Both the position numbers and the translations under genes were made by a program. Shown one piece after another: positions 41,311 to 62,004 of a DNA stretch of 64,000 nt; the first letter of the stretch is position 1, and each line of letters opens with the position of its first letter. The notes under the pieces were generated by a model. It did no database searches. It worked only from the letters and a program-made list of their open reading frames with translations, and had not been told where the DNA came from. Source of the DNA: Flavonifractor porci (GTDB lineage: Bacteria; Bacillota; Clostridia; Oscillospirales; Oscillospiraceae); the NCBI RefSeq assembly GCF_037572415.1, contig NZ_JBBHLB010000005.1, forward strand, positions 150,050-214,049, written 5' to 3'.

Positions 41311-41328
41311 TTAACCAATATCGGTTAA
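41311..41328. promoter_or_regulatory. inverted repeat operator candidate in the XRE/lipoprotein divergent region
   Basis: TTAACC-AATATC-GGTTAA, with a third TTAACC half-site at 41285-41290. Confidence 0.45.
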
Positions 41329-41353
41329 TATATTTATGTAGGAGGAGACGGAA

Positions 41354-42352: not shown

Positions 42353-42409
42353 GCACAAAAAGAGAGGGCGGTACACCATCAGTGCCGTCCTCTCTCATTT
42401 TGTATTCCA

Positions 42410-42826: not shown

Positions 42827-42940
42827 GGGACAAATCCCATGGGGACCCCAATGATTTCATCTGCTCGGGCGGAGTGAATCCGCCCGGCTTCGAGGTTTCA
42901 GCTTCGCCAAAACCCTCGGTGACGAGGCCCGCCACGGCAA
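42821..42940 (-). repeat. multi-hairpin repeat element, copy 3 (3' of reverse rubrerythrin)
   Basis: CCCCATGGGA-CAAA-TCCCATGGGG hairpin, GGGGACCCC, a TTCAC-loop hairpin and a GGTTTC..AAACC hairpin. 42921-42940 is the exact reverse complement of rubrerythrin 43022-43041. Confidence 0.85.
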
Positions 42941-42974
42941 AAAAGATCCCGGTCCGTTGGACCGGGATCTTTTA
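42939..42974 (-). terminator. intrinsic terminator of reverse rubrerythrin
   Basis: Minus strand reads AAAAGATCCCGGTCC-AACG-GACCGGGATCTTTTTT, 11 nt after the stop. Confidence 0.85.
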
Positions 42975-42984
42975 GGTATTCAGA

Positions 42985-43527
42985 TTAGCCGAAGTAACGC
43001 TTCAGCAGGCCCTCGAAAGCCTTGCCGTGGCGGGCCTCGTCGCGAGCCATCTCGTGGACGGTGTCGTGGATGGCGTCCAGGTTGTGCTCCTTGGCCAGCT
43101 TGGCCAGCTCGAACTTGCCGGCGGTAGCGCCGTTCTCGGCGTCCACACGCATCTCCAGGTTCTTCTTGGTGGAATCGGTCAGAACCTCACCCAGCAGCTC
43201 GGCAAACTTGGCGGCGTGCTCGGCCTCCTCCAGAGCGGCCTTCTCCCAGTACAGGCCGATCTCGGGGTAGCCCTCACGATGAGCCACACGGCTCATGGCC
43301 AGATACATACCGACCTCGGAGCACTCGCCCTCAAAGTTCATGCGCAGGCCCTGGATGATCTCCTCGGGAGCGCCCTTGGCAACACCGACAACGTGCTCAG
43401 CAGCCCAGGTACGATCGCCACCCTGGAGCACGAACTTCTCCTTGGGAGCCTTACAGATGGGGCAGAAATCAGGGGCGGAATCCCCCTCGTGAACATAACC
43501 GCAAACAGAGCAGACCCACTTTTTCAT
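42985..43527 (-). CDS. reverse rubrerythrin (N-terminal rubredoxin-like domain plus ferritin-like diiron domain)
   Basis: N-terminal [12 protein letters not shown]...CPICKAPK rubredoxin fold, followed by E..EXXH diiron motifs ([32 protein letters not shown]). Confidence 0.9.
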
Positions 43528-43604
43528 GTGATTTTCCTCCTAATTTAATGATTTATTTTATTCAATTTCGGGTTAGCTGGAAGTGCTAATCAGTAATGAT
43601 TATC

Positions 43605-43617
43605 ATTTCTGATATTA
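43605..43617. promoter_or_regulatory. Fur-family (PerR-like) box candidate upstream of reverse rubrerythrin
   Basis: AATGAT-T-ATCATT, a perfect 6-1-6 palindrome about 80 nt upstream of the start. It resembles Fur/PerR-type AT-rich boxes. Confidence 0.45.
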
Positions 43618-43683
43618 AGATAGCACAACTTAACTCTGCCGTCAAGTGTTTTTTTCAAATTCCGAAAACTTTTTTATTTCACC

Positions 43684-43842
43684 TTACTTTTCATGTTTGC
43701 GGCGGTAACGGCGGTGTCCCAGCACCAGAATAAAAACGCCTGCCGCTGCCAGGATTCCGCCCAATACAATCTGGGCGATGATGGGACCATACATGATAGA
43801 TATCACACGATCTATACTACTACTATAAAAGCCGAGATCCAT
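43684..43842 (-). CDS. small membrane protein (52 aa), below the track threshold
   Basis: ATG at 43842 with a GGGGGATAAGGAA RBS, 12 nt after the upstream XRE-TM gene stop. MDLGFYSSSIDRVISIMYGPIIAQIVLGGILAAAGVFILVLGHRRYRRKHEK has one TM and a basic tail. Confidence 0.5.
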   Translation of the reverse strand: MDLGFYSSSIDRVISIMYGPIIAQIVLGGILAAAGVFILVLGHRRYRRKHEK

Positions 43843-43854
43843 TTCCTTATCCCC

Positions 43855-44226
43855 CTATGGCAGACATTCGGGCAACTTCATAAACTCCCACAGGCCATTT
43901 ATGGTCAAAAGCTGCAGCAGCCCCCGTATCAACAGATAGCTCCCCACTGCCAGCGGTAAAATCCCCAGCAGATACCATCTGGGTTCTCTCCTCTCAGGTG
44001 CCGCCTCTGTGGGCAGGCCCGGATCAGGCCTCTCCCCTAACAGCAGCTGGTCTGTTGTGATCCCAAATAGTTTGGCCAAGGCCACGATCTTATCCAATTC
44101 CGGCTGGGCAGCGTCACCCTCCCACTTGCTCACCGCCTGGCGGGACACTCCCAGCAGTTCGGCCAACCCTTCCTGAGACAGGCCCGCGCGTTTGCGGTAA
44201 TTCAGAATCCGCTCTCCCAAGGTCAT
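43855..44226 (-). CDS. XRE-family HTH protein with C-terminal transmembrane segment
   Basis: LGERILNYRKRAGLSQEGLAELLGVSRQAVSKWE HTH motif, followed by WYLLGILPLAVGSYLLIRGLL as a TM. Confidence 0.8.
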   Translation of the reverse strand: MTLGERILNYRKRAGLSQEGLAELLGVSRQAVSKWEGDAAQPELDKIVALAKLFGITTDQLLLGERPDPGLPTEAAPERREPRWYLLGILPLAVGSYLLIRGLLQLLTINGLWEFMKLPECLP

Positions 44227-44416
44227 CCTTGCTCGCCATCCTTTCTCCCGGCGTCACCGGACAGTTCCAGACTATCAAACGATCCGGTTTCATACCATAA
44301 AGTTTGGCTTGAACTTCCACAACCGCTGGTTGTCAAAAGGGTTTTCAAGCAAAATCATCATAACATAGCCTGCCCAGCGTATTCAAGCATCCCTTGGTAA
44401 AGATCCGGCATAACAG

Positions 44417-44453
44417 AAAACGGGCGCGCTGGGATATACAGCGCGCCCGTTTT
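44417..44453. terminator. bidirectional intrinsic terminator
   Basis: AAAACGGGCGCGCTG-GGATATA-CAGCGCGCCCGTTTT. Confidence 0.85.
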
Positions 44454-44474
44454 GAGCGGTTTTTATCAGGCAAT

Positions 44475-45068
44475 TTATGTGTCCGCAAGTGCCTGGGCGG
44501 CAGCCTTGATTACAGCCACGCAGGCATCGATACCGATACGGCTGTTGACGCACAGATCATACTCCCGGCTCTGTCCCCAACGGCCGGTGGCAAAATAATT
44601 ATAATAGGAGGCTCTTGCCTTGTCCTGGCGGATAACATAGCTCTCCAGATTGTTCTCCTGTACACCGTACTCCTCCCGAGCCCGGCGGATCCGCTGATCC
44701 AGAGGTGCATTGACAAATACCTTCAGGCAGCGGGGGTGATCCCGAAGGATATAGTCGGCGCAGCGGCCCACAATGACACAGGATTCCCTGTCAGCGGCCT
44801 CCTTGATAACTTTAGCCTGCGCGATAAACACCTGATCGGGAACCGATGGCGTCTGTACGCTGGTATAGAGATCATAGAGAAAACTATTGGTGGGGCGCTG
44901 ATGCTCGGCATTGCGGATAAAGTGCTCGGAGAAGCCTGTCTTTTTTGCCACATCGGAGATCAGCTGTTTGTCGTAAAATGTGATGCCCATCTCTTCGGAC
45001 AACTGCTTGGCAATAAGCCGTCCGCCGGAACCGTACTCACGACCGATGGTAATGACGATGTGTTTCAT
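44475..45068 (-). CDS. cytidylate kinase-like family protein (P-loop)
   Basis: ITIGREYGSGGRLIAKQLSEEMGITFYDKQLI N-terminus; 197 aa. Confidence 0.75.
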   Translation of the reverse strand: MKHIVITIGREYGSGGRLIAKQLSEEMGITFYDKQLISDVAKKTGFSEHFIRNAEHQRPTNSFLYDLYTSVQTPSVPDQVFIAQAKVIKEAADRESCVIVGRCADYILRDHPRCLKVFVNAPLDQRIRRAREEYGVQENNLESYVIRQDKARASYYNYFATGRWGQSREYDLCVNSRIGIDACVAVIKAAAQALADT

Positions 45069-45305
45069 AAGAACACCTCCTATCCTAATTTAAGTATAAT
45101 GCTTTTTTCTCCTTCCGTCAAAGAGTTTTCATTTTCATATCTTATATTTATTATCCTATGTTAATATGCAAAATTTATTACGGATTTCGATTGACTTTCC
45201 GCCAAACCTGAGTATAATAGTTGCCATCTGGCCCATATGTCCAAAGGGTCTTTTCCCTCCGCAAGGAAACTGAAAAAGAGAGCACAAAAAGAAAGGAGTA
45301 TCCAT

Positions 45306-45509
45306 ATGTTTATTCTGGGTATCATTCTGATCATCGCCGGTATTGGCTGTGCCGGTTACGGTTTTATGCAGAACAACAGCTTGGAGGCCCAGTTCACCAG
45401 CATCATGAGCAGCGGTACCGCTAACCCCGGCACCATGTTTATCGTCATTGGCGTGATCCTGCTGGTAGTCGGTATCATCCTCTGTGTGGTCGGCAAAAAG
45501 AAGAATTAA
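45306..45509 (+). CDS. small two-TM membrane protein (DUF3185-like)
   Basis: AAAGGAG RBS. MFILGIILIIAGIGCAGYGF...MFIVIGVILLVVGIILCVVGKKKN. The track start at 45237 lacks an RBS. Confidence 0.6.
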   Translation: MFILGIILIIAGIGCAGYGFMQNNSLEAQFTSIMSSGTANPGTMFIVIGVILLVVGIILCVVGKKKN

Positions 45510-47120
<1,611 letters not shown>

Positions 47121-49110: not shown

Positions 49111-50475
49111 TCAGCGCTGATCCATGGGCACATAATCCGTATGGCTGCCCACATACTTATAGGCAGGACGGATGATCTTACCCATATTGATAAGCTCCTC
49201 AATGCGGTGGGCGGACCAGCCAGCCACACGGGCCATGGCAAAGATAGGCGTATACAGCTCCAGAGGCAGATCCAGCATATGGTACACAAAGCCGGAATAG
49301 AAGTCCACATTGGCGGATACGCCCTTGTACATCTTCCGCTCTCCGGAGATGACCTCGGGACCCAGCCGGGCCACCAGGGAATAGAGCTCATATTCCTCAT
49401 TGCGGCCCTTCTCACGGGACAGCTTCTCCACAAAGGAGTGGAGCAGGTTGGCACGGGGATCGGACAGAGAGTAAACCGCATGCCCCATGCCGTAGATCAG
49501 GCCCGCCTTGTCGAAGGCCTGCTTGTTGAGCAGAGCCTGCAGGTAATGACGTACTTCGTCCTCATCTTTCCAGTCCCGCACGGTCTCTTTCATGTCATCA
49601 AACATCTGCACCACCTTGATGTTGGCGCCGCCGTGCTTGGGACCCTTCAGAGAGGCCAGAGCCGCCGCCATACAGGAATAGGTATCGGTACCGGAGGAGG
49701 TGACCACATGGGTAGTGAAGGTGGAGTTGTTGCCGCCGCCGTGCTCGGCATGGAGTGTCAGACAAATATCCAACACATGGGCCTCCCAGAAGGAGTAGGA
49801 AGAATCCGCCCGCAGCAGGGAGAGGATGTTCTCCGCCGCCGACAGTTCCGGCCGGGGGGCGTGGATGTACAGGCTGCTGCCGCTCTTATAGTTCCAGGCT
49901 TGATAGCCATAGACACTGAGCATGGGGAACAGGGCAATAAGCTGGACACACTGGCGCATGACATTGGGCAGGGAGATGTCATCCGCCCGGTCATCATAGG
50001 AGGCCAGATTGAGCACACTCCGGGCCAGGGAATTCATGATATCATGGCTGGGCGCCTTCAGGATCACATCCCGCACAAAGTTGTTGGGCAGGGAACGATA
50101 ATAGGACAGCTGCTTGGAAAAGCCATCCAGCTCCTCCTTGGTGGGCAGCTTGCCCAGCAAAAGCAGATAGGCTGTCTCCTCAAAGCCGAAGCGGCCCTCC
50201 TTCAGAGCGCCTGCCACCAACTGCTCCACGTCCACACCGCGGTAATACAGCTTGCCTTCGCAGGGAATCTCCTGTCCATCCACAACCTTTTTGGCTACAA
50301 TATCAGAGACTTCAGTCAGTCCGGCAAGCACGCCCTTGCCGTTCAGGTCACGCAGGCCCCGCTTCACATCATATTTGACAAAATCGCCCGGATCAATGCA
50401 GCTGTTTTCCTGTGCCAAAGCCGCCAGGCGCTCAAGTTCAGGCGTAGTATTGCAGTAATTCGGATTGCTTGCCAT
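49111..50475 (-). CDS. citrate synthase (citrate/2-methylcitrate synthase family)
   Basis: 454 aa. LHAEHGGGNNSTF and GMGHAVY catalytic His motifs, plus the GPRLARV-like region MARVAGWSAHRIEE. Confidence 0.9.
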   Translation of the reverse strand: MASNPNYCNTTPELERLAALAQENSCIDPGDFVKYDVKRGLRDLNGKGVLAGLTEVSDIVAKKVVDGQEIPCEGKLYYRGVDVEQLVAGALKEGRFGFEETAYLLLLGKLPTKEELDGFSKQLSYYRSLPNNFVRDVILKAPSHDIMNSLARSVLNLASYDDRADDISLPNVMRQCVQLIALFPMLSVYGYQAWNYKSGSSLYIHAPRPELSAAENILSLLRADSSYSFWEAHVLDICLTLHAEHGGGNNSTFTTHVVTSSGTDTYSCMAAALASLKGPKHGGANIKVVQMFDDMKETVRDWKDEDEVRHYLQALLNKQAFDKAGLIYGMGHAVYSLSDPRANLLHSFVEKLSREKGRNEEYELYSLVARLGPEVISGERKMYKGVSANVDFYSGFVYHMLDLPLELYTPIFAMARVAGWSAHRIEELINMGKIIRPAYKYVGSHTDYVPMDQR

Positions 50476-50653
50476 GAAAAACCTCCATTCTCTTCACATA
50501 CCCAGGGGACAACCCCTTTGCCAATCAGTTCATTGCTAACTATTATGGCATAAAAATGTTACCACAATATGAATCGCTCTCGATTTTTTCATTGAAATTT
50601 TTCTTCTATAATGGACCGACCCGCTGCGGCAAGGCCGGACAGCGGGTCGGAAT

Positions 50654-51577
50654 TTAGAACAGGTCTTTCTTCTTCAGGATGATGCCAGTCACCAGAATCA
50701 CGCCCAGAGACAGCACCAGCGGGAACCACCAGAACTGATCCAGGGGCAGATTGGCTACATTCATACCGTAGAAGCTGAAGAAAATATTGGGGATGGTCAG
50801 CAGGATCGTGATGGAGGTCAGCACCTTCATGATCACGTTCAGGTTGTTGGAGATCACGGAGGCAAAGGCGTCCATCATGCCGGAAATAATGGAGGAATAA
50901 ATATTGGCCATCTCAATAGCCTGGCGTACCTCGATAAGCACGTCCTCCAGCAGGTCATGGTCCTCTTCGTAGAGGGTAATGATGCGGCCGCGGAGGATCT
51001 TCTCCAGGGTGACCTCATTGGCTTTCAGTGAGGTATTAAAGTAAACCAGTGACTTTTCCAGGTCCAGCAGCTGGATCAGTTCCTTGTTCCGCTGGGACTT
51101 GTAAAGCTGACGCTCCATGTAGTTGTAGATCTTGTCGATCTGCTTCAGGTATTGCAGGAAGCGTTTAGCCACCTGAAGCAGCATATAGAGGATGAACTGG
51201 GTCCGCTTCTGGGTATCCGCATTGCGTACCAGCCCGTCCTGGAAATCCTTCAGAATAGAGGTCTCTTTCAGGCAAACGGTAATGATGTGCTTCTCAGTGA
51301 CGATGATGCCCAAAGGCAGGGTGGAATACACCACCGCGTCGTCCTTCTCCACCGAGGGAGCGTCAATGATAATGAGGGTCTGCCCCTCTTCGGTATCAAT
51401 ACGGGAGGTCTCTTCTTCGTCCAGCGCGGCCCGCAGGAAAGAGGGCTCCACGCCCAGGGTTACCGCTACCGTATTCAGCTCATCCTCGCTGGGATAGGTC
51501 AGGTTGACCCAGCAGCCGTCCTGCACGGCATCCAGCTTGGTCATTTTCCCATTGATGGTCTTGTGAATGGAAAGCAA
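50654..51577 (-). CDS. corA: CorA-family magnesium/cobalt transporter
   Basis: C-terminal two TMs with the FYGMNV (GMN) motif. A TTG start gives the family-typical MLSIHKTINGK... N-terminus. Confidence 0.9.
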   Translation of the reverse strand: MLSIHKTINGKMTKLDAVQDGCWVNLTYPSEDELNTVAVTLGVEPSFLRAALDEEETSRIDTEEGQTLIIIDAPSVEKDDAVVYSTLPLGIIVTEKHIITVCLKETSILKDFQDGLVRNADTQKRTQFILYMLLQVAKRFLQYLKQIDKIYNYMERQLYKSQRNKELIQLLDLEKSLVYFNTSLKANEVTLEKILRGRIITLYEEDHDLLEDVLIEVRQAIEMANIYSSIISGMMDAFASVISNNLNVIMKVLTSITILLTIPNIFFSFYGMNVANLPLDQFWWFPLVLSLGVILVTGIILKKKDLF

Positions 51578-51860
51578 TTAACTCACGCCTTTCTGGGCGC
51601 AGGGACCAAAAAGGCATAAAAATCCCCGCACACCTATTGTCTCGCCGATCCGCTCCACTTATACCAACGGACCGAAAAAGGGCACAGGCGTGCGGGCGCT
51701 CCCGGTCATGCCGGTCAAACGCCGATCCAATACGCCGTGCCAGTTGTGTTGCATTCTCGACTCAGAGGGTCACCGCTCACGGCGCATATCACTCCCTTAT
51801 GACATAATCTGTCTTTCCAAAACCAGCCGACCAATGTCGCTGGTCCTTGAATCGGTCTTT

Positions 51861-51889
51861 ATTATATGCTACTTTCAGCTGAATTGCAA
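51861..51889 (-). promoter_or_regulatory. strong sigma-A-type promoter about 275 nt upstream of corA
   Basis: Minus strand reads TTGCAA (51889-51884), 17 nt, TATAAT (51866-51861). Confidence 0.65.
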
Positions 51890-52020
51890 GCCTGCACTCT
51901 TGCCGCCTCTCCTTTTCTTCCACAATAACGCCCAGCTCCAGACAAATTCCTTCCTCCAAAATACATTGCTGGACGTCCCGTCCATTCAGCACAGATGGCC
52001 AGCTTATATGATTCTGTCCT

Positions 52021-52707
52021 TTATGGAACTACAAAGCGGTAGCCCAGTCCACGGACCGTCTGGATATATTGGGGCTTGGATGGGTTTTCTTCGATCTTTG
52101 CGCGGATTCGGTTGATATAAACCATAATGGCATTTTCGTCAATGATAGCCGACCCCCATACCAGGTCGTAGATCATATCCTTGGAAAAAATATGATTCAC
52201 ATTGTCCATAAACAGCTTGATCATGGCGTTTTCCTTGGAGGAGAGAACCACCTCTTCTCCGTTTTTATAGAAACGGAGCGTGCTGGTATTATACTGAAAG
52301 GGGCCGGCGGTAATGATCTGATCCGCTCCGGGCAGATTCCCCCGGCTGCGGCGGATCAGCGCTTTTACCTTTGCTGCAAGGGTAACCGGATTGAGGGGTT
52401 TTGTGATATAGTCGTCTGCACCAATATCCAGACCATAGAGGGTATCATAATCCTCTTTGCGTCCGCTGACGATCATAATGGGGATCTTGCCTCCGTTGCG
52501 CCGGATATGCTGGATCACCTGAAACCCATCCATACCGGACAGATTGATATCCAGCAAAAGCAGGTCGTACTTTTTCTTTGCCAGCATCTCAAGGCACTGT
52601 TCCCCGGAATCGGCGGTATCCGCCTGAATGCCGTTGCTGCTGATCACTTTATACAGCATGGTAAGAACAGCTCTGTCGTCATCAACAATGAGTACAAGAT
52701 CCGCCAA
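52021..52707 (-). CDS. OmpR-family response regulator
   Basis: TTG start at 52707 with an AGGGGGA RBS. Receiver domain (VLIVDDD...LLLLDINLSGMDG) plus a winged-helix output (YIQTVRGLGYRFV). The track N-terminal extension is non-homologous. Confidence 0.9.
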   Translation of the reverse strand: MADLVLIVDDDRAVLTMLYKVISSNGIQADTADSGEQCLEMLAKKKYDLLLLDINLSGMDGFQVIQHIRRNGGKIPIMIVSGRKEDYDTLYGLDIGADDYITKPLNPVTLAAKVKALIRRSRGNLPGADQIITAGPFQYNTSTLRFYKNGEEVVLSSKENAMIKLFMDNVNHIFSKDMIYDLVWGSAIIDENAIMVYINRIRAKIEENPSKPQYIQTVRGLGYRFVVP

Positions 52708-52770
52708 GGTGCATCCCCCTTTACACAGCTTGCTTCTTCCAGTATGATATCCAGTATAAAAGACGAGTAT

Positions 52771-54552
52771 ATGTTTGGCAAGGGGAGAATTTACTTGAAA
52801 CCGCCCATCAAACTGGAGCGCAAATTCCTGATGATTATATTGCTGGCTTTCGCCCTCATATTTGCCGGAATTTTTATGGTATTTCGTGTTTTCCACCAAT
52901 ACGAAAATATGATGATCCAAAACGAAGACCGGCAGCTTTTGGGGTTGTCCCGCTCGGTGGACCGCAGTATCACCAGCTATATTCAGCAATTTTCCCGGGA
53001 TCTGAAGCACACGCTGCAGCGCGACGGACTGGAAGAGGCGGAGACTGCTTATCGGAACACTGGAAGCATGGAAGAAATTGCTTTGCAAATCGAGGCAACC
53101 ATCCTTTCAGAGCATCCCTTGACATACGACATCCTGTGTATCGACAACGGAACCATTCTTTACTCCTCCCGCGGAAAAACAGACTATGTGTTTCCGCCAA
53201 ATGCCGGTCTGGAGGGAGACGTCGATATCCGCCCCTGCGTCGATGCGTCAGGAACGATCTACCTCTCCTTCCAGAAAAGCATCCAAAGCGATCTGCGATA
53301 CGCCGTACTGATCGAGCTTACGGAATTTTATCAGGCTGTGGCGGGAAATCTGATCGTCGGTACCCAAGACCGTATTCTGCTTCTGGACGCAGGGGGACAC
53401 ACACTCTTATATCAAACGGAAGAAGGCCCCGCGGCCTCACTTGTCCAGAATGATCGGGAGGGCGTGATCGATCAGGACGAGTTAAATGCGCTTCTGAACT
53501 GCCAAAGCCGCGGGGAAGATGTATCTCTTTTCTACCAGGCTCAGACCAGCAAAGATGCAAAAGCTTATACGGCGCGCATGGCAGCCATTCCGGCCGCCGG
53601 AAACAATGGTGTGTTTGCAGTGGGGGCCTCCCTCAATTATGAAACCATCAAACGTCCCATCCATATGTCCGCCATACGGCTTGCCGCCTACAGCAGCATG
53701 ATCATACTCGGAATTTTACTGTTGGCTGGCTCCATCCTGCTGGTAGCCCGGCGCAATGCGCGGACCCAGCAGGAAGTGATCATGCTGCGGGAACAAAATC
53801 TCGCCCTGGAGGCGGTCACAAAAAAGTCCCAGGCTCTGGCCCACCATCAGCGGCTGGAGATCATTGGCACCCTGACCTCCAGCATTGCCCATGAATTCAA
53901 CAACCTTCTGACCCCCATTATGGGTTACTCCATTCTGGTTCTGGAAAAACTGCCGCCTGACGCCGAAGAGACCTATGACAATGTACTGGAAATTTACGAG
54001 GCTTCCAGAAAGGCAAAGACCATTATCTCCCGCCTCTCAGACCTCTCCCGCAAAAATACCCCCCTCACTTTTCAGTATGTCTCGCCGGATGATCTGGTGC
54101 TGCGTGTTCTGGAGATCGCCGCGCCGGCGAAACCGCCCAAGGTACAGGTCAGCAGCAAGCTTCAGTGCCGGCACCTCTGGGTGCACGGCAATGAGATCCA
54201 GCTGTCCCAAATGCTGCTCAACCTGATTTTGAACGCTTACCAGGCCATGGAGACAGACGGCGGGACCCTTACCGCCACAACTGAACAGGAGGATGACTGG
54301 ATCTGCTTCCATGTGGCCGATACAGGCCCGGGAATCGCCCCCTCGCTGCTGGAAACGATCTTTGAGCCCTTCTTTACCACCAAGGAACGAGGAAAAGGAA
54401 CCGGGCTGGGTCTGGCCATTGTGCAGCAGGTCGTAGAGGAACACCACGGTACTGTCTGCGTCCACAGCGAATTGGGACAGGGAACCACATTCACCGTTCG
54501 TCTGCCCCTCCCCGCCCAGGAGGATGGACACAGCCATAACAGCATATCATAA
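52771..54552 (+). CDS. sensor histidine kinase with a large extracytoplasmic sensor domain
   Basis: TM1 (FLMIILLAFALIFAGIFMVF), an approx. 250-aa loop and TM2. H-box SSIAHEFNNLLTPI. HATPase N/G boxes (LNLILNAYQAM, DTGPGI, GTGLGL). The start is ATG 52771 or TTG 52795. Confidence 0.9.
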   Translation: MFGKGRIYLKPPIKLERKFLMIILLAFALIFAGIFMVFRVFHQYENMMIQNEDRQLLGLSRSVDRSITSYIQQFSRDLKHTLQRDGLEEAETAYRNTGSMEEIALQIEATILSEHPLTYDILCIDNGTILYSSRGKTDYVFPPNAGLEGDVDIRPCVDASGTIYLSFQKSIQSDLRYAVLIELTEFYQAVAGNLIVGTQDRILLLDAGGHTLLYQTEEGPAASLVQNDREGVIDQDELNALLNCQSRGEDVSLFYQAQTSKDAKAYTARMAAIPAAGNNGVFAVGASLNYETIKRPIHMSAIRLAAYSSMIILGILLLAGSILLVARRNARTQQEVIMLREQNLALEAVTKKSQALAHHQRLEIIGTLTSSIAHEFNNLLTPIMGYSILVLEKLPPDAEETYDNVLEIYEASRKAKTIISRLSDLSRKNTPLTFQYVSPDDLVLRVLEIAAPAKPPKVQVSSKLQCRHLWVHGNEIQLSQMLLNLILNAYQAMETDGGTLTATTEQEDDWICFHVADTGPGIAPSLLETIFEPFFTTKERGKGTGLGLAIVQQVVEEHHGTVCVHSELGQGTTFTVRLPLPAQEDGHSHNSIS

Positions 54553-54597: not shown

Positions 54598-54691
54598 CCT
54601 TAACAAATATTAAGGGTACAGTAATTCCCCATTAAGCAGGGATTGTTATAATTTTGACAAACTCATTCTTGTCACGAAGTGGAGCAGTCAG

Positions 54692-55177
54692 ATGATTATA
54701 ACGATCGCACGAAAGTACGGCAGCGGCGGCCGGGAGATCGGCCAGCGGCTGGCCAAACATCTGGATATTCCCTACTACAACGTGGACGCCCTGCCCCACA
54801 CACAAACCGGGGACTGGCGGGAAGAGATCCTTCTGCTGGCCGATACCGGTCCATGCGTCATGGTGGGTTTTTGCGCCGACCATGCACTGGCTGGGCGGGA
54901 AGGCCTCATGCGTATCTTTATCCACTGTGACATGGAGCATCGCCTCCAGCGGATCATGGCGGAGCATCACCTCTCCAGAGAACAGGCCCAGCGCGAGGCC
55001 CTCTATCAGGACCGGGAGCGGTCCCGGCTGTACGGATTCTACACCGGAGAAAAATGGGCCAATCTGGACCGGTACGATCTGACGGTCAACAGCAGCCTTT
55101 TGGGGACAGCCGGTACCGTGGAATTGCTGGGCCAGTTTGTGGCGCTGAATGTCATGCGTAAACGCAGAGGCCAGTGA
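54692..55177 (+). CDS. cytidylate kinase-like family protein (second, shorter paralog)
   Basis: ITIARKYGSGGREIGQRLAKHLDIPYYN N-terminus, similar to the protein at 44475-45068. Confidence 0.7.
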   Translation: MIITIARKYGSGGREIGQRLAKHLDIPYYNVDALPHTQTGDWREEILLLADTGPCVMVGFCADHALAGREGLMRIFIHCDMEHRLQRIMAEHHLSREQAQREALYQDRERSRLYGFYTGEKWANLDRYDLTVNSSLLGTAGTVELLGQFVALNVMRKRRGQ

Positions 55178-55326: not shown

Positions 55327-55656
55327 ATGCTGGAGAATTTGATTGAAACCGCACTGCCCACCATCATCGCAATTCTGGAGATCATGGGCATCTTCGTAGT
55401 GGTCGTCTCGGCCACCGGCGCGTTTATCCGTTACCTGAAAGGGCTTATCACCCACTCCGGGTCAGACGTCAAGTTTGCCCTGGCCAACGGGCTGGCCATC
55501 AGTCTGGAATTCAAAATGGCCGCCGAGATCTTGAAAACCGTCCTGGTGCATGAGCTCAATGAGCTGATGGTATTGGGGGCGGTCATCCTTTTGCGTGCGC
55601 TGTTATCATTTCTCATTCACTTTGAAATGAAGCAGATACATCACACCGAATCATAA
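55327..55656 (+). CDS. DUF1622-like small membrane protein
   Basis: GGAGG RBS. 109 aa with 2-3 TMs. The ALANGLAISLEFKMAAEILKTV motif matches my recollection of DUF1622. Confidence 0.65.
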   Translation: MLENLIETALPTIIAILEIMGIFVVVVSATGAFIRYLKGLITHSGSDVKFALANGLAISLEFKMAAEILKTVLVHELNELMVLGAVILLRALLSFLIHFEMKQIHHTES

Positions 55657-55673
55657 TTCAGGAGGTACCACAA

Positions 55674-56747
55674 ATGAAGAAACTGCTTGCACTGATCCTG
55701 TCCGGTACGCTGACCATGGGCGCACTGTCCGCCTGCGGCAGCACGGCGGTGGTGGCTGTCCCCCAGCCTGAGGAATCTGCGCCCGCCGTCACCGAACCGG
55801 TTCCGGAACACACGCAAGGTACATCGGATGCCGCGGTCAAAACCGGCCTCTATCTGGGCACCAGCTTGTCCAGCAGCAAAAATGCCGCCGACGGCGAGGA
55901 TGGATACAGCCAGGCCAACGTCGAACTGGTGGCGGTCACTGTGACCGACGAAGGGGTCATCGACTCCTGCGTGATCGACTCCATCCAGGCAAAGGCCTCC
56001 TTTGACGCCACCGGAACCCTGACTGCCGACCTGACCGCCCAGGTGCCCTCCAAAAACGAGCTGGGCAGCAATTACGGTATGGGCCAGGTCAGTTCCATCG
56101 GCAAGGAGTGGAACGAACAGGTTCAGGCTCTGGCCGATTACGTAGAGGGCAAGACGGTGGAGGAGATCAAGGGCATCGCCGTGACCGAGGAGGGCAAGGC
56201 CTCCGACGCGGATCTGGCCGCCTCCGTTACCGTCTCCATCGCCGGCTATCTGGACGCCATTGAGCAGGCGGTTTCCAACGCCACTCATCTTGGCGCCATG
56301 CAGGGAGATCGTCTGGTTCTGACCACCTCCACCAACATTGCCAACAGCAAGAGCGCCACCGCTGAGGAGCCCGGCCAGGTCCAGACCTCCGCCACTGTGG
56401 CCGCCGTTACCCTGAGCGGCGACGTGATCACCAGCTGCTACATCGACGCTGTCCAGGCCAATGTGGACTTTGATGCTGCCGGCGTGATCACCACCGACCT
56501 GACCGCGGCGCCGCCCACCAAAAATGAGCTGGGCGACAACTACGGCATGGGCCAGATCAGCCCCATCGGCAAGGAATGGAATGAGCAGGTGGCTGCCTTC
56601 TGCGCGTATGTGACCGGCAAGACCCTGAACCAGGTGGCGGGGATCGCCGTGACCGAAAAGGGCGCTGCCGCCGACGCAGACCTGGCCGCCTCGGTCACCA
56701 TCGCCATCGGGGAGTTCCAGGCCCTGATTGCAAAAGCCGCCGCCTGA
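55674..56747 (+). CDS. lipoprotein with two tandem FMN_bind-like domains
   Basis: AGGAGG RBS. Lipobox (MGALSAC-GS). There is an internal duplication: aa approx. 80-205 and 225-357 both contain V.VT...G.I.SC.ID..QA...FDA.G....DLTA..P.KNELG.NYGMGQ.S.IGKEWNEQV...V.GKT......GIAVTE.G...DADLAASVT..I. Confidence 0.7.
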   Translation: MKKLLALILSGTLTMGALSACGSTAVVAVPQPEESAPAVTEPVPEHTQGTSDAAVKTGLYLGTSLSSSKNAADGEDGYSQANVELVAVTVTDEGVIDSCVIDSIQAKASFDATGTLTADLTAQVPSKNELGSNYGMGQVSSIGKEWNEQVQALADYVEGKTVEEIKGIAVTEEGKASDADLAASVTVSIAGYLDAIEQAVSNATHLGAMQGDRLVLTTSTNIANSKSATAEEPGQVQTSATVAAVTLSGDVITSCYIDAVQANVDFDAAGVITTDLTAAPPTKNELGDNYGMGQISPIGKEWNEQVAAFCAYVTGKTLNQVAGIAVTEKGAAADADLAASVTIAIGEFQALIAKAAA

Positions 56748-56801
56748 GTTTTTCTTCAGGCAGCAGCTTGATACCCCTGTCATTTGGAAAGTAGAGGTTA
56801 T

Positions 56802-57836
56802 ATGAAGCGAACGGCCACTTTGATCCTCCTGCTGGTTCTGCTCTGCGGGTGCGCAGCAGCCCCCGCAAAGTCTGACGACACTGGACTGAACCGCTATGAG
56901 GCCACATTTCTGACCCTGTTTGATACCGTCACCACCATCGTGGGATATGCCGAAACCGAGGAGGCCTTTACCGACACGGCCCAGGCCTTCCATGATGAAC
57001 TGCTGGAATATCATCAGCTCTATGACATTTACAACGAGTACGAGGGAATCAACAACATCAAGACCATCAACGATCACGGCTGGGAACACCCCATCAAGGT
57101 GGATCAGCGGATCATTGACCTGCTGTTGTTCAGCAAGGAGCTGTATACCCAGACAGAAGGCAGGGTCAACATCGCCATGGGCAGCGTACTCCGCCTGTGG
57201 CATGATGCCCGGGAAACCGGCATAGCCGACCCCAGCCGGGCGGCACTGCCGGACCAGGCTGCCCTGGAACAGGCCGCAGCCCACACGGATCTCGACAGCA
57301 TCCAGATCGACGTGGAAAAACGCACCGTTTTCCTGTCTGACCCGGAGGTCAAACTGGATGTTGGCGCCATTGCCAAAGGCTATGCGGTGGAGCAGGTCTG
57401 CCGGAACACCCCCTCTGGATTGCTCATCAGCGTGGGCGGAAATGTCTGTCCCACCGGCCCAAAGCCGGAAAGCGGCCATCCGTGGGTGGTGGGCATTCAG
57501 GCCCCGGAAGATCCGGATCAATATCTCCATACCATCTATGTGGAAGATGTCTCTGTGGTCACCAGCGGAGATTATCAGCGGTATTTTACCGTGGACGGCG
57601 TTCCATACCACCATATCATAGATCCTGACACCAACTATCCTGCCGGTCACTGGCGCTCGGTCACCATTCTGTGTCGGGATTCCGGTGTGGCGGACGCCCT
57701 CTCCACCGCCCTTTTTACCCTGCCCCAGAAGGCGGGACAGGCCCTGCTGGACGCCTTCCAGGCAGAGGCCATGTGGGTGCGTCAGGACGGAACCATCCTG
57801 TACAGCCCCGGATTTCAGGCGTATATCCGCGTATAG
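56802..57836 (+). CDS. apbE: FAD:protein FMN transferase (ApbE), lipoprotein
   Basis: MKRTATLILLLVLLCGC lipobox. ApbE motifs are present, including DVGAIAKGYA, SGDYQRYF and HHIIDPDTNYPA. Confidence 0.9.
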   Translation: MKRTATLILLLVLLCGCAAAPAKSDDTGLNRYEATFLTLFDTVTTIVGYAETEEAFTDTAQAFHDELLEYHQLYDIYNEYEGINNIKTINDHGWEHPIKVDQRIIDLLLFSKELYTQTEGRVNIAMGSVLRLWHDARETGIADPSRAALPDQAALEQAAAHTDLDSIQIDVEKRTVFLSDPEVKLDVGAIAKGYAVEQVCRNTPSGLLISVGGNVCPTGPKPESGHPWVVGIQAPEDPDQYLHTIYVEDVSVVTSGDYQRYFTVDGVPYHHIIDPDTNYPAGHWRSVTILCRDSGVADALSTALFTLPQKAGQALLDAFQAEAMWVRQDGTILYSPGFQAYIRV

Positions 57837-57867
57837 CCAAAGCGCTCATATCATCGAGGTGGAAAGA

Positions 57868-59175
57868 ATGAGAAAATTGTTTTGGGGTGGTATCCACCCA
57901 GAGGGACATAAAGCTCTCTCCCGGGGTGCATCCCCCATTCCCGCACCCCTGCCGGCGCAGGTCGTCCTGCCCATGGTCCAGCATATCGGCGCAGCCTGCA
58001 CCCCTGTGGTCAAAGTCGGCGATCAGGTCAAAATGGGACAAAAGATCGGCGACGGGGAAGGGATCTGCGCCCCCATCCATGCCTCTGTCTCAGGCAAAGT
58101 GGTGGCTGTGGAGCCCCGTCCCCACCCCGGCGGCAGCGAAGCGCTGTCCGTGGTGATCGAAAATGACTACACAGATACACCGGACGACACCTTAAAGCCC
58201 CATCTGGCCCACCATGACCTCTCCGGAGAAGAGATCCTCCGCATCATCCGGGATGCAGGCATCGTGGGCATGGGCGGCGCCGCATTCCCCACAGACGTGA
58301 AGGCCTTCTCCGCACTGGGCCAGGTGGACTATGTGATCATCAATGCCTGTGAGTGCGAGCCGTATATTACGGCGGACGATACCCTCATCTGTACTTATCC
58401 CGAGCAGGTGATCCGGGGAACGGAGACCCTGATTCATACCCTCACACCCAAGCATACGGTGATCGCCATTGAGGACAACAAGCAGGAGGCCATCCGCATT
58501 CTGAGGGACGCCCTGCCCAAGGACTCATCCATCGAATTGCGGGTACTGCCCACCCGCTACCCCCAGGGCGCCGAGAAGCAGCTGATCCAGGCCGTAACCA
58601 GCCGGCAGGTCCCTCCGGGCAAGCTGCCCGCCGCCGTGGGCTGCGCCGTGTTCAACGCAGCCACCGCTGCCGCCGTCTATCAGGCGGTATACGAGGGCAA
58701 GCCGGTCACCCGCCGCATTGTGACGGTCACCGGCGACGGAGCTGTGGCGCCCAAGAATATGATTTTCCGCATTGGTGCCACCTTCGGTCAGGCCATTGAC
58801 GCTGCCGGCGGCATGGCGGAGGACACCCAAAAAGTGCTGTCCGGCGGTCCTATGATGGGCCTTGCCCAAAAGGACCTGGCCGTGCCGGTTCTGAAGGGCA
58901 CCAACGCCATTCTGTGCCTGAAAGCCACAGTTCCCCAGACCAAAACCCAGACCTGCATCCGCTGCGCCAAGTGCGTGTCCGTTTGCCCCATGCACCTGCA
59001 GCCGCTGTACCTGTACCGCTTTGAACAGGCCGGGAACTGGAAGGAACTTGAGAAGCTGCATTTGACGGACTGTATCGAGTGCGGAAGCTGCAGCTACACC
59101 TGCCCGGCACAGCTCCCGCTGGTGGAGCGGTTCCGTGCGGGCAAACAGCAGCTGAAGGAGGCAAAGAAAGCATGA
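57868..59175 (+). CDS. rnfC: RnfC-like subunit (NADH/FMN-binding, 2x[4Fe-4S])
   Basis: GAGGTGG RBS. GGIHPEGHK...LPMVQHIGAACTPVVKVGDQV N-terminus, GMGGAAFPT, and two CxxCxxCxxxCP clusters (CIRCAKCVSVCP, CIECGSCSYTCP). Confidence 0.9.
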   Translation: MRKLFWGGIHPEGHKALSRGASPIPAPLPAQVVLPMVQHIGAACTPVVKVGDQVKMGQKIGDGEGICAPIHASVSGKVVAVEPRPHPGGSEALSVVIENDYTDTPDDTLKPHLAHHDLSGEEILRIIRDAGIVGMGGAAFPTDVKAFSALGQVDYVIINACECEPYITADDTLICTYPEQVIRGTETLIHTLTPKHTVIAIEDNKQEAIRILRDALPKDSSIELRVLPTRYPQGAEKQLIQAVTSRQVPPGKLPAAVGCAVFNAATAAAVYQAVYEGKPVTRRIVTVTGDGAVAPKNMIFRIGATFGQAIDAAGGMAEDTQKVLSGGPMMGLAQKDLAVPVLKGTNAILCLKATVPQTKTQTCIRCAKCVSVCPMHLQPLYLYRFEQAGNWKELEKLHLTDCIECGSCSYTCPAQLPLVERFRAGKQQLKEAKKA

Positions 59176-60146
59176 AACTGCTTGTAACATCCTCTCCCCA
59201 CATTCACAGCGGGTCCCGTACCAGCCGTCTGATGGGCGCGGTGCTGATCGCGCTGATTCCCGCCCTTGTGGCCGGTGTGTGGTTCTTTGGTATCAGAGCC
59301 CTGGTCCTTACCGCGGTCACTGTGCTGGCCTGCCTGCTCTCCGAGTGGCTCTACCGCATGGTCACCCGGCAGAGCAACACCCTGCCGGACCTGTCCGCAG
59401 CGGTGACCGGCGTTCTGCTGGCTATGACCCTCCCCGCCTCCGCCCCCTACTGGCTGGCGGCTCTGGGCGGTGTCTTTGCCATTGTGGTGGTCAAGGGGCT
59501 GATCGGCGGTCTGGGACAGAACATCTTTAACCCTGCCCTGGCTGCCCGGGCTTTCCTGGTCCTGTTCTGGCCCAGCTGGATGGTCCGCTATGCGGCGCCT
59601 GGTACCGCCCTGGACCCGCTGTCGGTCTCAGTGGACATCGTATCCTCCGCCACTCCTCTGCACCATATGCAGATGCCCGCGCTGCCTACGGAGTCCCTGC
59701 TGGATGTATTTCTGGGAAATATGGGCGGCTGTATCGGCGAGGTGTCCGCCCTGGCCCTGCTGCTGGGCGGCGGATACCTGCTGCTCCGTAAGGTGATCTC
59801 CTGGCGCATTCCGGCGGCCTACCTGGGCGCTGTGGCACTGCTTACCCTGATCTTCTCCAAAGGCCAGGATCCCGTCCTGTGGATGCTCTACAGCCTGATG
59901 GGCGGCGGCGTGCTGCTGGGCGCCTTCTTTATGGCCACGGACTATGCCACCTCCCCTGTTACCCCCAAGGGCCAGCTGATCTACGGCGTGGGATGCGGCG
60001 TACTCACCGTCTGCTTCCGCTGCTACGGACTTTTCCCGGAAGGGGTCACCTATGCCATCCTGCTGATGAACGCCTGTGCCTGGAGCCTGGACCGGCTCAC
60101 ACCCCCCAAGCGCTTTGGCACTGTGAAAGGAGGCGGCGTACAGTGA
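59172..60146 (+). CDS. rnfD: RnfD-like membrane subunit
   Basis: ATGA overlap with rnfC. SSPHIHS N-terminus. A flavinylation-type site DIVSSATPL. Polytopic, 324 aa. Confidence 0.9.
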   Translation: MKLLVTSSPHIHSGSRTSRLMGAVLIALIPALVAGVWFFGIRALVLTAVTVLACLLSEWLYRMVTRQSNTLPDLSAAVTGVLLAMTLPASAPYWLAALGGVFAIVVVKGLIGGLGQNIFNPALAARAFLVLFWPSWMVRYAAPGTALDPLSVSVDIVSSATPLHHMQMPALPTESLLDVFLGNMGGCIGEVSALALLLGGGYLLLRKVISWRIPAAYLGAVALLTLIFSKGQDPVLWMLYSLMGGGVLLGAFFMATDYATSPVTPKGQLIYGVGCGVLTVCFRCYGLFPEGVTYAILLMNACAWSLDRLTPPKRFGTVKGGGVQ

Positions 60147-60682
60147 ACATAAAACAGTTGATCCAGCCTGTGGCTGCCCTTCTCATCGCCGCCCTGGTTT
60201 TGTTCCTGGGCACCACCGTGCTCTCCCCCATTGCTCAGGAAAACAAGGAGCAGGAGCTGCAGTCCATCCTCTCCACCCTTCTGCCCGGCGCAGAGTCCTT
60301 TGTCCAGGAAGAGTACACCGGCGAGGACGAGGCTATCTCCGCGGTCTACAAGGCGGATAACGGCTATGTGATCGAAACGGTCACCGCCGGATATGCCGGC
60401 GATATCACCATGCTGGTAGGCGTCAATCTGGACGGCACCATTGCCGGTCTGGTGGTGCGGGATATGCAGGAGACCTACGGGCTTGGCATGGAGGCCCTCT
60501 CCGACGTATCCTTCCTGTCTCAGTTCCTCTGGAATGGCACCACCTTTACCGTAGGCGAAAATGTGGACGCCCTCACCGGCGCCACCGTTACCTCCAAGGG
60601 GGTGGCCAAGGCTGTTACCTCAGCCAGTGCCTTTGTAACCGGCGCGGATATTGGCTCCAGCGCCACCGAATGGGGAGGTTGA
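60143..60682 (+). CDS. rnfG: RnfG-like FMN-binding subunit
   Basis: GTGA overlap with rnfD and an AAGGAGG RBS. N-terminal TM. Canonical flavinylation motif VDALTGATVTSKGV. Confidence 0.9.
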   Translation: MNIKQLIQPVAALLIAALVLFLGTTVLSPIAQENKEQELQSILSTLLPGAESFVQEEYTGEDEAISAVYKADNGYVIETVTAGYAGDITMLVGVNLDGTIAGLVVRDMQETYGLGMEALSDVSFLSQFLWNGTTFTVGENVDALTGATVTSKGVAKAVTSASAFVTGADIGSSATEWGG

Positions 60683-60686
60683 TGTG

Positions 60687-61124
60687 ATGAAAAATACCTA
60701 TCGTCTGAATACCTTCCTGGCTTTGGTGGCAGGCCTGGTATTTCTGGGCTACCTGGCAGTGCAGGCCTATTCTCCCGCCGCCATTCTTCCTCAGCTGGAT
60801 CTGATGCTGGTCAGCGGGATCTCCCTGGTGGCCCTGATCCTGGAGTATTATTCCGGGAAGCCGGTGGAGCGTCGCAGCTGGCCTGTGACAGCGCTGCTCA
60901 GCGCACTGACGTTCGTTCTGCTGCCTCTGGCGGCGGGTCTGATGTCCGGTCAGGAGCTGCTCCGGTTTGCCCTGGTAAGCTGGGCTGCGTTTATGGTGCT
61001 GACCTTCCTGTTTACCGCCATCTGTCAGCGTCTGGCCTCCGGACCAGCAAGCAAGATCGCTCCCCTGCTCTCTGCCGGAGTCCTGTTCCTGGCGGTTCAG
61101 GGCTGCAGCAGCCTGTTCCTGTGA
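60687..61124 (+). CDS. hypothetical 4-TM membrane protein (last gene of the Rnf-like operon)
   Basis: ATG 4 nt after the rnfG stop. 145 aa with four hydrophobic segments. I see no resemblance to RnfA/RnfE (which have about 6 TMs and about 190 aa). Confidence 0.6.
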   Translation: MKNTYRLNTFLALVAGLVFLGYLAVQAYSPAAILPQLDLMLVSGISLVALILEYYSGKPVERRSWPVTALLSALTFVLLPLAAGLMSGQELLRFALVSWAAFMVLTFLFTAICQRLASGPASKIAPLLSAGVLFLAVQGCSSLFL

Positions 61125-61152
61125 CCCCGCAAGCTTCCTTGCCTTCACGTTT

Positions 61153-61196
61153 AAAAAGAGAAAGCCTTGAAACTGTAGTTTCAAGGCTTTCTCTTT
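61153..61196. terminator. strong bidirectional terminator ending the Rnf-like operon
   Basis: AAAAAGAGAAAGCCTTGAAACT-GT-AGTTTCAAGGCTTTCTCTTT. Confidence 0.9.
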
Positions 61197-61201: not shown

Positions 61202-61615
61202 TTAATAAAACTTCTGCTCCGCTTGTCCGCCATTCCCTTTCTCTGCGGCCATTTGGTTGATTTCCTGCAGCGTATACTCCTTGCCAACACATTCCGTCAT
61301 CCCGCTGCTGCCGGCATCCTGCACCTTTATGTAAATGACTCCGTTTTTCTTGCCAGAAAGCTTTTTCAGCAGTCCGGTCGTCGTAAGCATCGTCTTGTTA
61401 AAGCCGGTTACATCAGGAACAGGGGAGCTGAGGATGCAGCCACACTGTTCACATTTGAACAGGTATAGATTCCCTTCCAACTTCATCTGCATTTTCTGAT
61501 CAATGCTCCAGTGGGGAACCGACGTTCCACACAGGGGACAAGTCTGAACATTGCGGTCAATAAATCCCTGAGGAACACTTCCCGCAAAGCCTTCCATCCT
61601 CTTAAACGCCATCAT
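61202..61615 (-). CDS. hypothetical zinc-ribbon protein
   Basis: 137 aa with CPLCG...CEQCGC (CxxC..CxxC) and then an unassigned C-terminal domain. Confidence 0.55.
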   Translation of the reverse strand: MMAFKRMEGFAGSVPQGFIDRNVQTCPLCGTSVPHWSIDQKMQMKLEGNLYLFKCEQCGCILSSPVPDVTGFNKTMLTTTGLLKKLSGKKNGVIYIKVQDAGSSGMTECVGKEYTLQEINQMAAEKGNGGQAEQKFY

Positions 61616-61629: not shown

Positions 61630-62004
61630 TTATAGTCCAACCATCATGGAAATGATAAAATACAGCAAGGCTCCCCCTGCAATCGTAAAAATGGTAATAG
61701 CCAGATAGTTGAGCCCGAACTCCTTCGCCCTCGCTTTGTTGGCTTTAACTGCCACAGTGGATGCTTTTACGACAGGGAATCCATTTTCGATCACGACATC
61801 GGCGGTAAAGTCATTTCTGATCATAGCCCCATAACTATTCTGGGAGTCTACAAAACCGGCTATATGGTATCCTCTTGTCTCATCTCCCACGATGGATATC
61901 ATATCAACTGGGAACTGCGCCGATGCCGGGCTTTTGAGTTGGGCACAAATTGCCGGTTTTACAACCTTCATAATTTCTTCGTTGGTCACTTCGATTCCTC
62001 CCAT
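61630..62004 (-). CDS. hypothetical tail-anchored membrane protein
   Basis: 124 aa. The LKSPASAQFP motif is common in small extracytoplasmic domains. A single C-terminal TM (LAITIFTIAGGALLYFIISMMVGL). Confidence 0.5.
   Translation of the reverse strand: MGGIEVTNEEIMKVVKPAICAQLKSPASAQFPVDMISIVGDETRGYHIAGFVDSQNSYGAMIRNDFTADVVIENGFPVVKASTVAVKANKARAKEFGLNYLAITIFTIAGGALLYFIISMMVGL

Follow-up and report, generated by a model that had tools for sequence, protein, structure and literature searches.

Flavin-based extracellular electron transfer (EET) in Gram-positive bacteria is understood as a single chain, in which electrons from NADH (reduced nicotinamide adenine dinucleotide) pass through the dehydrogenase Ndh2 to demethylmenaquinone and from there to the surface lipoprotein PplA. 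The published EET locus comprises Ndh2, DmkB, DmkA, EetA, EetB, PplA and FmnB, with EetB corresponding to PF07456 (PMC9973259). Here we describe an operon from Flavonifractor porci that would keep the outer end of this chain and be fed differently. It lies in a 64-kb stretch of contig NZ_JBBHLB010000005.1, the whole of which was analysed and is called the window below. A two-repeat lipoprotein and an ApbE-type transferase, which attaches flavin mononucleotide (FMN) to proteins, are encoded beside RnfC, RnfD, a divergent RnfG (hereafter RnfG′) and a membrane protein of 145 amino acids (aa). As far as genes and structure models describe it here, this operon rather likely encodes a form of Gram-positive flavin-based EET that works without quinone.

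The second relative of the operon is the Rnf complex. In the solved complexes, NAD+ receives electrons from RnfC (FMN and two [4Fe-4S] clusters), RnfC from the riboflavin and covalent FMN of RnfD, and RnfD from the FMN of RnfG (PMC12174285, PMC9588780). It is the N- and C-terminal arms of RnfD, and not RnfA or RnfE, that keep RnfC in place, while RnfA, RnfE and RnfB contribute helices to a four-helix bundle into which the anchor helix of RnfG packs (PMC12174285, PMC9588780). The C, D and G subunits thus form a contiguous arm that could in principle stand alone, though RnfG would forfeit its usual membrane docking partners.

Proposed exchange of the electron-feeding module

We scanned species-representative genomes with an alignment of the lipoprotein and recovered 80 loci across the Clostridia, which were classed by tblastn with the window proteins and with the neighbours found in a locus of Ruminiclostridium sufflavum (L059). 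In 75 of the 80, apbE adjoins the lipoprotein gene. Accompanying genes were counted in the 48 loci where the lipoprotein gene had 5.5 kb or more of sequence to either side. RnfC, RnfD and RnfG occurred together in 27 of these (RnfCDG-type or type A loci), none of which held Ndh2, DmkA or DmkB; 19 held Ndh2/Dmk, and Rnf was present in none of them; the remaining two were of other types. Neither the window nor any RnfCDG-type locus gave a match to Ndh2 or to DmkA/DmkB. EetB occurs in the flanks of 11 of the 27 RnfCDG-type loci, mostly together with EetA, and with one exception it lies 5′ of the lipoprotein gene.

The R. sufflavum locus encodes a 688-aa NADH dehydrogenase (Pyr_redox_2) that has membrane helices at its C-terminus, a polyprenyl synthase, UbiA, NusG_II and PF07456, followed by the lipoprotein and ApbE; judged by these domains, its gene set is that of the published EET locus. 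On the strength of the lipoprotein-apbE synteny and the exclusive swap, we propose that the lipoprotein is PplA-like and serves as terminal flavin carrier, that ApbE is FmnB-like, and that half an Rnf complex replaces Ndh2 and the quinone branch. The simplest reading would be a module swap within one system, whose core is the lipoprotein with its flavin transferase and whose feed is either Ndh2 with demethylmenaquinone or RnfC-RnfD-RnfG′. An earlier reading of the same DNA, made from its letters and here called the sequence-only reading, had suggested that a ferredoxin-independent C-D-G unit could move electrons between NADH and flavoproteins outside the cytosol, with the adjacent lipoprotein as a candidate partner. 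The mutually exclusive loci and the PplA and FmnB positions of the two core genes support this suggestion.

A survey of related genomes, proposed alongside that reading, found the arrangement conserved. The module architecture occurs in at least 39 species-level genomes of the Oscillospiraceae and Lachnospiraceae, at 46-94% identity. In relatives with wholly different flanking genes, the series still runs from the response regulator through kinase, PF13189, DUF1622, lipoprotein, ApbE, RnfC, RnfD and FMN_bind to the 145-aa protein. Its hosts include Flavonifractor (among them F. plautii ATCC 29863), Intestinimonas, Oscillibacter, Faecousia, Pelethomonas and Lachnospiraceae. The same DNA is present in numerous metagenome assemblies as well as in the metagenome-assembled genome (MAG) GCA_022785125.1, and the closest named genome is that of Flavonifractor sp. 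AGMB03687 (lipoprotein identity 87%). Relative to the closest relative (L014), the ratio of non-synonymous to synonymous substitution rates (dN/dS) was 0.078 for RnfC, 0.086 for RnfD, 0.092 for RnfG′, 0.14 for DUF1622, 0.17 for both the lipoprotein and ApbE, and 0.36 for the 145-aa protein. All genes are under purifying selection, which argues that the operon is not decaying.

Several loci depart from these two arrangements. A MAG of an uncultured Merdimonas sp. (L016) has the order kinase, PF13189, EetA, EetB, DUF1622, lipoprotein, ApbE and an rnfC stub, followed by unrelated genes. Locus L065 (1685-5988) carries EetA-EetB-DUF1622-lipoprotein-ApbE and then two separate FMN_bind proteins, and an Anaerofustis locus (L044, 10001-12369) has lipoprotein-ApbE-DUF1622 with neither Rnf nor Ndh2 nearby.

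Predicted flavin sites, membrane subunits and surroundings

The seven open reading frames from the DUF1622 gene to that of the 145-aa protein are intact and translationally coupled, each with a Shine-Dalgarno-like sequence 5′ of it (Table 1); for apbE, a start at 56802 was preferred over 56784. The hairpin after them is the shared terminator of convergent transcription units, and the genes past it lie on the opposite strand. The sequence-only reading had described seven co-oriented genes in this order, a strong terminator with opposite-strand genes beyond, and the motifs SSAT in RnfD and TGAT in RnfG, all of which we recovered, the genes with coordinates and with Pfam and NCBIfam matches. Its gene list had left out the PF13189 gene between the kinase and DUF1622.

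Table 1. Features of the operon and its upstream region, in window coordinates.
Feature	Position	Strand	Remarks
OmpR-type response regulator	52021-52707	-	Response_reg and Trans_reg_C; divergent from the operon
Sensor histidine kinase, 602 aa	52744-54552	+	HisKA and HATPase_c
Cytidylate-kinase-like P-loop gene	54692-55177	+	PF13189; between histidine kinase and DUF1622
DUF1622 small membrane protein	55327-55656	+	PF07784, E 6.7e-17; directly 5′ of the lipoprotein gene
Lipoprotein, 357 aa	55674-56747	+	lipobox LSAC; no Pfam or NCBIfam match
Thr186, repeat 1, proposed FMN acceptor	56229-56231	+	motif D180-L-A-A-S-V-T186
Thr342, repeat 2, proposed FMN acceptor	56697-56699	+	motif D336-L-A-A-S-V-T342
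apbE, ApbE/FmnB-like FAD (flavin adenine dinucleotide):protein FMN transferase, lipoprotein	56802-57836	+	PF02424, E 6.7e-64; lipobox LLCGC
rnfC, 435 aa	57868-59175	+	TIGR01945, 511 bits (cut-off 246); Pfam RnfC_N, Complex1_51K, SLBB, Fer4
rnfD, 324 aa	59172-60146	+	TIGR01946, 316 bits (cut-off 207); PF03116 the sole Pfam domain; ATGA overlap with rnfC
RnfD Thr161, predicted flavinylation site	59652-59654	+	D-I-V-S-S-A-T-P-L
rnfG-like gene (RnfG′)	60143-60682	+	FMN_bind, E 1.1e-16; GTGA overlap with rnfD
RnfG′ Thr148, predicted canonical flavinylation site	60584-60586	+	D-A-L-T-G-A-T
RnfG′ Thr175, second predicted flavinylation site	60665-60667	+	tail G-A-D-I-G-S-S-A-T-E-W-G-G
145-aa membrane protein	60687-61124	+	no Pfam or NCBIfam match
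Hairpin, perfect 19-bp stem	61155-61196	not assigned	-28.9 kcal/mol, z = -6.2

The lipoprotein consists of two repeats of about 155 aa that are 54% identical to each other. Its AlphaFold2 model, built with 43 homologues, is confident except in the signal and the linker (pLDDT, the predicted local distance difference test score, 85.6), and both repeats adopt the FMN_bind fold in it. The earlier description of a double FMN_bind-like lipoprotein therefore holds for the repeats and for the fold, though not for detection by the Pfam FMN_bind family. D180/T186 and D336/T342 are invariant among the 43 homologues. At the same position other family members carry the canonical DLASGAT, DLASSAT, DLASTAT or DLASSVT, a series that places the acceptor at Thr186 and Thr342 and suggests that D-L-A-A-S-V-T is a flavinylation motif in register, with modification predicted. 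The same series rules out Ser184 and Ser340 as acceptors, and Ser340 is Gly in two homologues.

Some clusters of this lipoprotein comprise hundreds of metagenomic members. A three-repeat form precedes the same set of ApbE, RnfC, RnfD, G and small protein. In loci L046, L085, L090 (gene from 10001) and L011 (10001-11512), lipoproteins of 503-685 aa with three or four repeats carry the canonical DLASGAT on alternate repeats. An earlier comparative study reported cad-apbE pairs as confined to genomes without rnf, and 3O6U has served as the modelling template for the Enterococcus cAD1/PplA precursor (PMC7074142).

RnfC and RnfD resemble their canonical counterparts closely. RnfC matches over its full length to the Acetobacterium woodii protein (9eri_C, 405 bits) and to that of Clostridium tetanomorphum (7zc6_C, 387 bits), with which it shares the length of 435 aa. 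It combines an NADH/FMN domain with two [4Fe-4S] motifs of the form CxxCxxCxxxCP, both of which are also found in 39 of 44 relatives. RnfD matches 7zc6_D over its full length (297 bits), and its predicted acceptor threonine is kept by most type A relatives. RnfG′ has an N-terminal membrane anchor, an extracytosolic FMN_bind domain and a C-terminal tail; it aligns with 7zc6_G over residues 13-164 (E 3.7e-12) and scores 62 bits against TIGR01947, below the cut-off of 102.

The tail of RnfG′, TGADIGSSATEWGG (residues 166-179, window 60638-60682), reaches 15 residues past the terminal helix, which in C. tetanomorphum RnfG is the end of the chain (PMC9588780). All 39 type A loci examined carry its motif, Dxx[ST][SGA]AT-x-W-G, which was not found in E. 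coli RsxG. Across the whole window, canonical flavinylation motifs occur only at RnfD T161, RnfG′ T148 and RnfG′ T175. ApbE labelling works best on terminal tags (PMC12052999), and the tail resembles such a flavin tag, placed naturally at the C-terminus.

The sequence-only reading had noted that no rnfE, rnfA or rnfB follows the operon. In tblastn searches with RsxA, RsxB and RsxE of E. coli (locus L013), we indeed found no homologue in the 64-kb window, and RsxA and RsxE gave no match in the 10-kb flanks of 92 related loci. RsxB gave two partial ferredoxin-domain (Fer4-region) matches and nothing more among the 80 loci.

In the place of these genes stands that of the 145-aa protein; among 39 loci having RnfC, RnfD and RnfG, 35 show it after rnfG′. 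It is a membrane protein, as read earlier, with five predicted helices rather than four (AlphaFold2 pLDDT 85). Its family is an orphan one of 376 clusters at 50% identity, nearly all of them 140-150 aa long and stand-alone, and it is specific to the RnfCDG-type module. No match was obtained in the PDB by phmmer, nor in PDB sequences with a profile of 95 family members at E values up to 10; a Foldseek search with the AlphaFold2 model gave nothing below E = 1 and no RnfA or RnfE among the 50 matches listed. RnfA Cys26 and Cys114 are thought to hold the intramembrane iron-sulfur centre. The 145-aa protein has neither of these cysteines and no RnfE partner, and its family has no invariant cysteine.

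The hhalign match of the 145-aa protein to RnfA/NqrE is limited to its last two helices, which align with TM5-TM6 (the fifth and sixth transmembrane helices) at a probability of 28-51% (P 1.5e-4 to 6e-4); the aligned region corresponds to E. coli RsxA residues 126-191, with about 30% identity. Four control membrane proteins, RnfD, ArsP and EetB among them, gave P values of 0.2-0.6, and the alignment with E. coli RsxE had a probability of 0.2%. We thus rejected the identification of this protein as a divergent RnfA or RnfE, which the sequence-only reading had named as the finding that would overturn it: the match is weak and confined to two helices, the cluster cysteines are missing and the PDB searches gave no match. 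What was found is a similarity, borderline in strength, to the hairpin with which RnfA ends. The protein is possibly an RnfA remnant, this similarity being a hint of descent and not of membership. In the complex, it would probably replace RnfA and RnfE as the membrane docking partner or scaffold for the anchor helix of RnfG′.

Upstream of the operon lies a two-component system, for which the response regulator coordinates come from a gene call in L001 (offset +50686) and the kinase start from a 602-aa gene call in L002. By hydropathy, the kinase has two membrane helices, and the roughly 230 aa that separate them form an extracytosolic sensor region. Orthologues of the response regulator (69-94% identity) and of the kinase adjoin the RnfCDG-type module in 12 loci and are essentially absent from Ndh2-type loci, which supports the earlier suggestion of this system as a candidate regulator. 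The divergent pair would probably place expression of the operon under the control of an external signal. The PF13189 gene holds this position only in a Flavonifractor-like subgroup (3 of the 30 type A loci with enough upstream sequence), and a promoter-like site lies just 5′ of it, at 54669-54696. DUF1622 also adjoins lipoprotein-apbE pairs without Rnf (L044, L065) and therefore seems to belong to the flavinylation side of the locus.

Beyond the terminator, two small convergent genes without Pfam match (61202-61615 and 61630-62004, - strand; 137 and 124 aa) are kept downstream in close relatives; the CxxC...CxxC spacing of the 137-aa protein suggests a zinc ribbon. The remaining window is ordinary chromosome, with genes for SMC, topoisomerase I, MacB/HlyD, SLH-domain surface proteins and a GH84 enzyme. 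The last is a 2094-aa surface protein (32609-38893, - strand) that combines a GH84 beta-N-acetylglucosaminidase with F5/8 type C, Big_4, fn3, Listeria-Bacteroides repeat and SLH domains, and suggests glycan foraging by an S-layer-anchored enzyme. GC content falls to 0.49-0.52 at 38001-46000 and 50001-54000, against about 0.60 in the rest, and the first of these stretches contains the gene of a VWA-domain protein (39224-40681).

Proposed electron path and rival explanations

From the genes and models we infer an autonomously assembling complex with outward electron flow, in which both the lipoprotein motif and the RnfG′ tail are flavinylated and the 145-aa protein and DUF1622 have the roles suggested above. 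RnfC, peripheral on the cytoplasmic side, would oxidise NADH with a non-covalent FMN and two [4Fe-4S] clusters. RnfD would carry the electrons across the membrane by riboflavin and the covalent FMN on Thr161, and pass them to the extracytosolic RnfG′, where one FMN would be bound covalently to Thr148 and probably another to Thr175. The PplA-like lipoprotein would then take them up on the predicted FMN of Thr186 and Thr342 and reduce acceptors outside, be they free flavins, Fe(III) or extracytosolic flavin reductases whose genes lie elsewhere. All five covalent flavins would be installed outside the membrane by the ApbE/FmnB lipoprotein. As the operon has no DmkA or DmkB, the path would include no quinone step.

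Several points weigh against this interpretation. EetA and EetB (PF07456, FAD export) were not found in the window, and no conserved gene was found 3′ of the module when the flanks of relatives were compared. Pfam FMN_bind (PF04205) matched neither the lipoprotein nor any of 48 scanned family members; what ties the lipoprotein to PplA is two things, its position in the locus and its fold. Its A-S-V-T departs from the flavinylation motif D-x-x-[ST]-G-A-[ST] at three positions, and in a model substrate only about 50% of the flavinylation was left after either the G-to-A or the A-to-V substitution (PMC12052999). The negative searches for rnfA, rnfE and rnfB cover the window and the 10-kb flanks, one part of each genome. 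Finally, in the Merdimonas locus (L016) apbE is followed by no more of rnfC than its first 51 codons (12219-12374), which reflects either a real deletion or a misassembly.

That stub is one of the signs in favour of the view that the operon is a decaying, functionless remnant of rnfCDGEAB, along with the missing rnfE, rnfA and rnfB and the similarity of the 145-aa protein to the RnfA C-terminus, which may be that of a fragment. Seven intact and translationally coupled frames, an architecture shared by at least 39 species-level genomes at 46-94% identity, dN/dS values of 0.07-0.36, conserved cofactor motifs and a tail motif on RnfG′ that is a gained feature led us to reject decay, which the sequence-only reading had held open and which we regard as extremely improbable. 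Reverse flow as the main mode, in which reduced extracellular flavins or other low-potential donors would deliver electrons through the lipoprotein and RnfG′-RnfD-RnfC to NAD+, would agree with the fact that the C-D-G arm of the known Rnf complex works in both directions (PMC12174285). It is very unlikely in our view: the module stands in for the NADH-oxidising Ndh2 in EET loci, and no coupling module is evident. By standard midpoint potentials, electron transfer from flavin-level donors to NAD+ (about -320 mV) is uphill, which also counts against it.

Two other explanations concern what RnfC, RnfD and RnfG′ work with. Canonical Rnf is carried by many Clostridia, and the C-D-G′ subunits might assemble with RnfA, RnfE and RnfB from a canonical operon elsewhere in the genome, giving an ion-pumping isoform with a lipoprotein branch that could draw electrons from ferredoxin as well. 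RnfC and RnfD are indeed very close to canonical clostridial subunits, and outlets that branch off through a multi-flavinylated RnfG were suggested earlier for RNF clusters (PMC8238504). A dedicated RnfC and RnfD would, however, be redundant if they merely plugged into an existing complex, the family-specific 145-aa protein occupies the place of rnfE-rnfA in 35 of 39 loci, no rnfA, rnfE or rnfB lies within 10 kb in 92 loci, and the one-for-one replacement of Ndh2/Dmk in EET loci points to a self-sufficient route from NADH to the lipoprotein; we therefore think such assembly improbable. A bolder version of self-sufficiency, which we consider a doubtful though serious candidate, would make RnfC-RnfD-RnfG′ and the 145-aa protein an autonomous half-Rnf, a transmembrane electron exporter that is driven by NADH and forms a new class, with the flavin tag of RnfG′ as a swinging arm, a scaffold derived from RnfA and perhaps Na+ or H+ movement through RnfD. 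Were this true, quinone-free gut Clostridia would have an energy-linked extracellular respiration, and the coupling site of RnfD would be isolated from that of RnfA/RnfE.

Under the preferred interpretation, a quinone-independent EET system, the locus suggests that abundant gut Clostridia could reach a flavinylated lipoprotein straight from NADH, quinone-free. It would also be a natural dissection of Rnf, in which the NAD(H)-side arm (C-D-G) stands apart from the ferredoxin-side arm (B-A-E), making testable both the stability and activity of C-D-G alone and ion translocation by RnfD itself. Two new candidate substrates of ApbE emerge, namely the RnfG′ tail as a C-terminal flavin tag and the A-S-V-T variant site of the lipoprotein.

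Comparison with described systems

With the Listeria monocytogenes/Firmicutes EET locus (PMC9973259), the operon shares a surface lipoprotein of two domains, predicted here to carry flavin, beside an ApbE-type transferase. Many of its relatives keep EetA/EetB upstream, and homologues of the lipoprotein (47-53% identity) occur in canonical Ndh2-DmkB-DmkA-EetA-EetB-lipoprotein-ApbE loci. It differs in having RnfC-RnfD-RnfG′ and the 145-aa protein instead of membrane Ndh2 and DmkA/DmkB, in the DUF1622 and cytidylate-kinase-like genes that the window has in place of EetA/EetB, and in the lipoprotein acceptor, A-S-V-T as against S-G-A-T. Canonical Rnf (C. tetanomorphum 7ZC6, A. woodii 9ERI) has the same C-D-G gene order and cofactor motifs, with full-length RnfC and RnfD matches of 277-405 bits. 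Unlike it, the operon has no RnfA, no RnfE (membrane iron-sulfur centre) and no RnfB (ferredoxin entry); its RnfG′ is divergent and bears an extra C-terminal flavinylation motif, and a PplA-like lipoprotein is added.

The concept of the operon is the same as that of the two-subunit NQR/RNF-like system (PMC8238504, PMC11334425). In the latter, an RnfD-like domain without the flavinylated Thr is fused to an NqrF-type PF00175 domain, chiefly among Actinobacteria and members of the candidate phyla radiation, whereas the operon has a separate NuoF-like RnfC with Fe-S clusters, an RnfD that keeps its Thr, no PF00175 fusion and Clostridia as hosts. The FMN-bind2 double-domain proteins resemble the lipoprotein by description, with units of about 155-160 aa (about 160 aa in the publication, where they were detected by BLAST) that are missed by Pfam, occur in twos and fours and have an FMN_bind fold with insertions; the publication draws no connection to RnfCDG (PMC11334425). 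The eetB-apbE-Rnf clusters of Clostridia likewise place eetA/eetB and apbE beside rnf genes, but no PplA-like lipoprotein and no loss of A, E and B are mentioned for them, and since they are defined by the presence of RnfB they represent complete Rnf (PMC9973259). The ApbE-NosR system of soil Clostridium (PMC13134045) was judged different from the operon.

Our literature search found no account of this gene arrangement, and the portions of the Meheust 2021 supplements that we consulted hold no Flavonifractor, PF13375 or PF07784 entry (PMC8238504). That survey defined RNF by the presence of RnfB, EET by membrane Ndh2 and NQR/RNF-like systems by the RnfD-PF00175 fusion (PMC8238504), so that a cluster such as this one would stay unclassified. 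Its parts are known and their combination appears to be new, and it is best filed as a hybrid of EET and Rnf rather than as a new kind of system.

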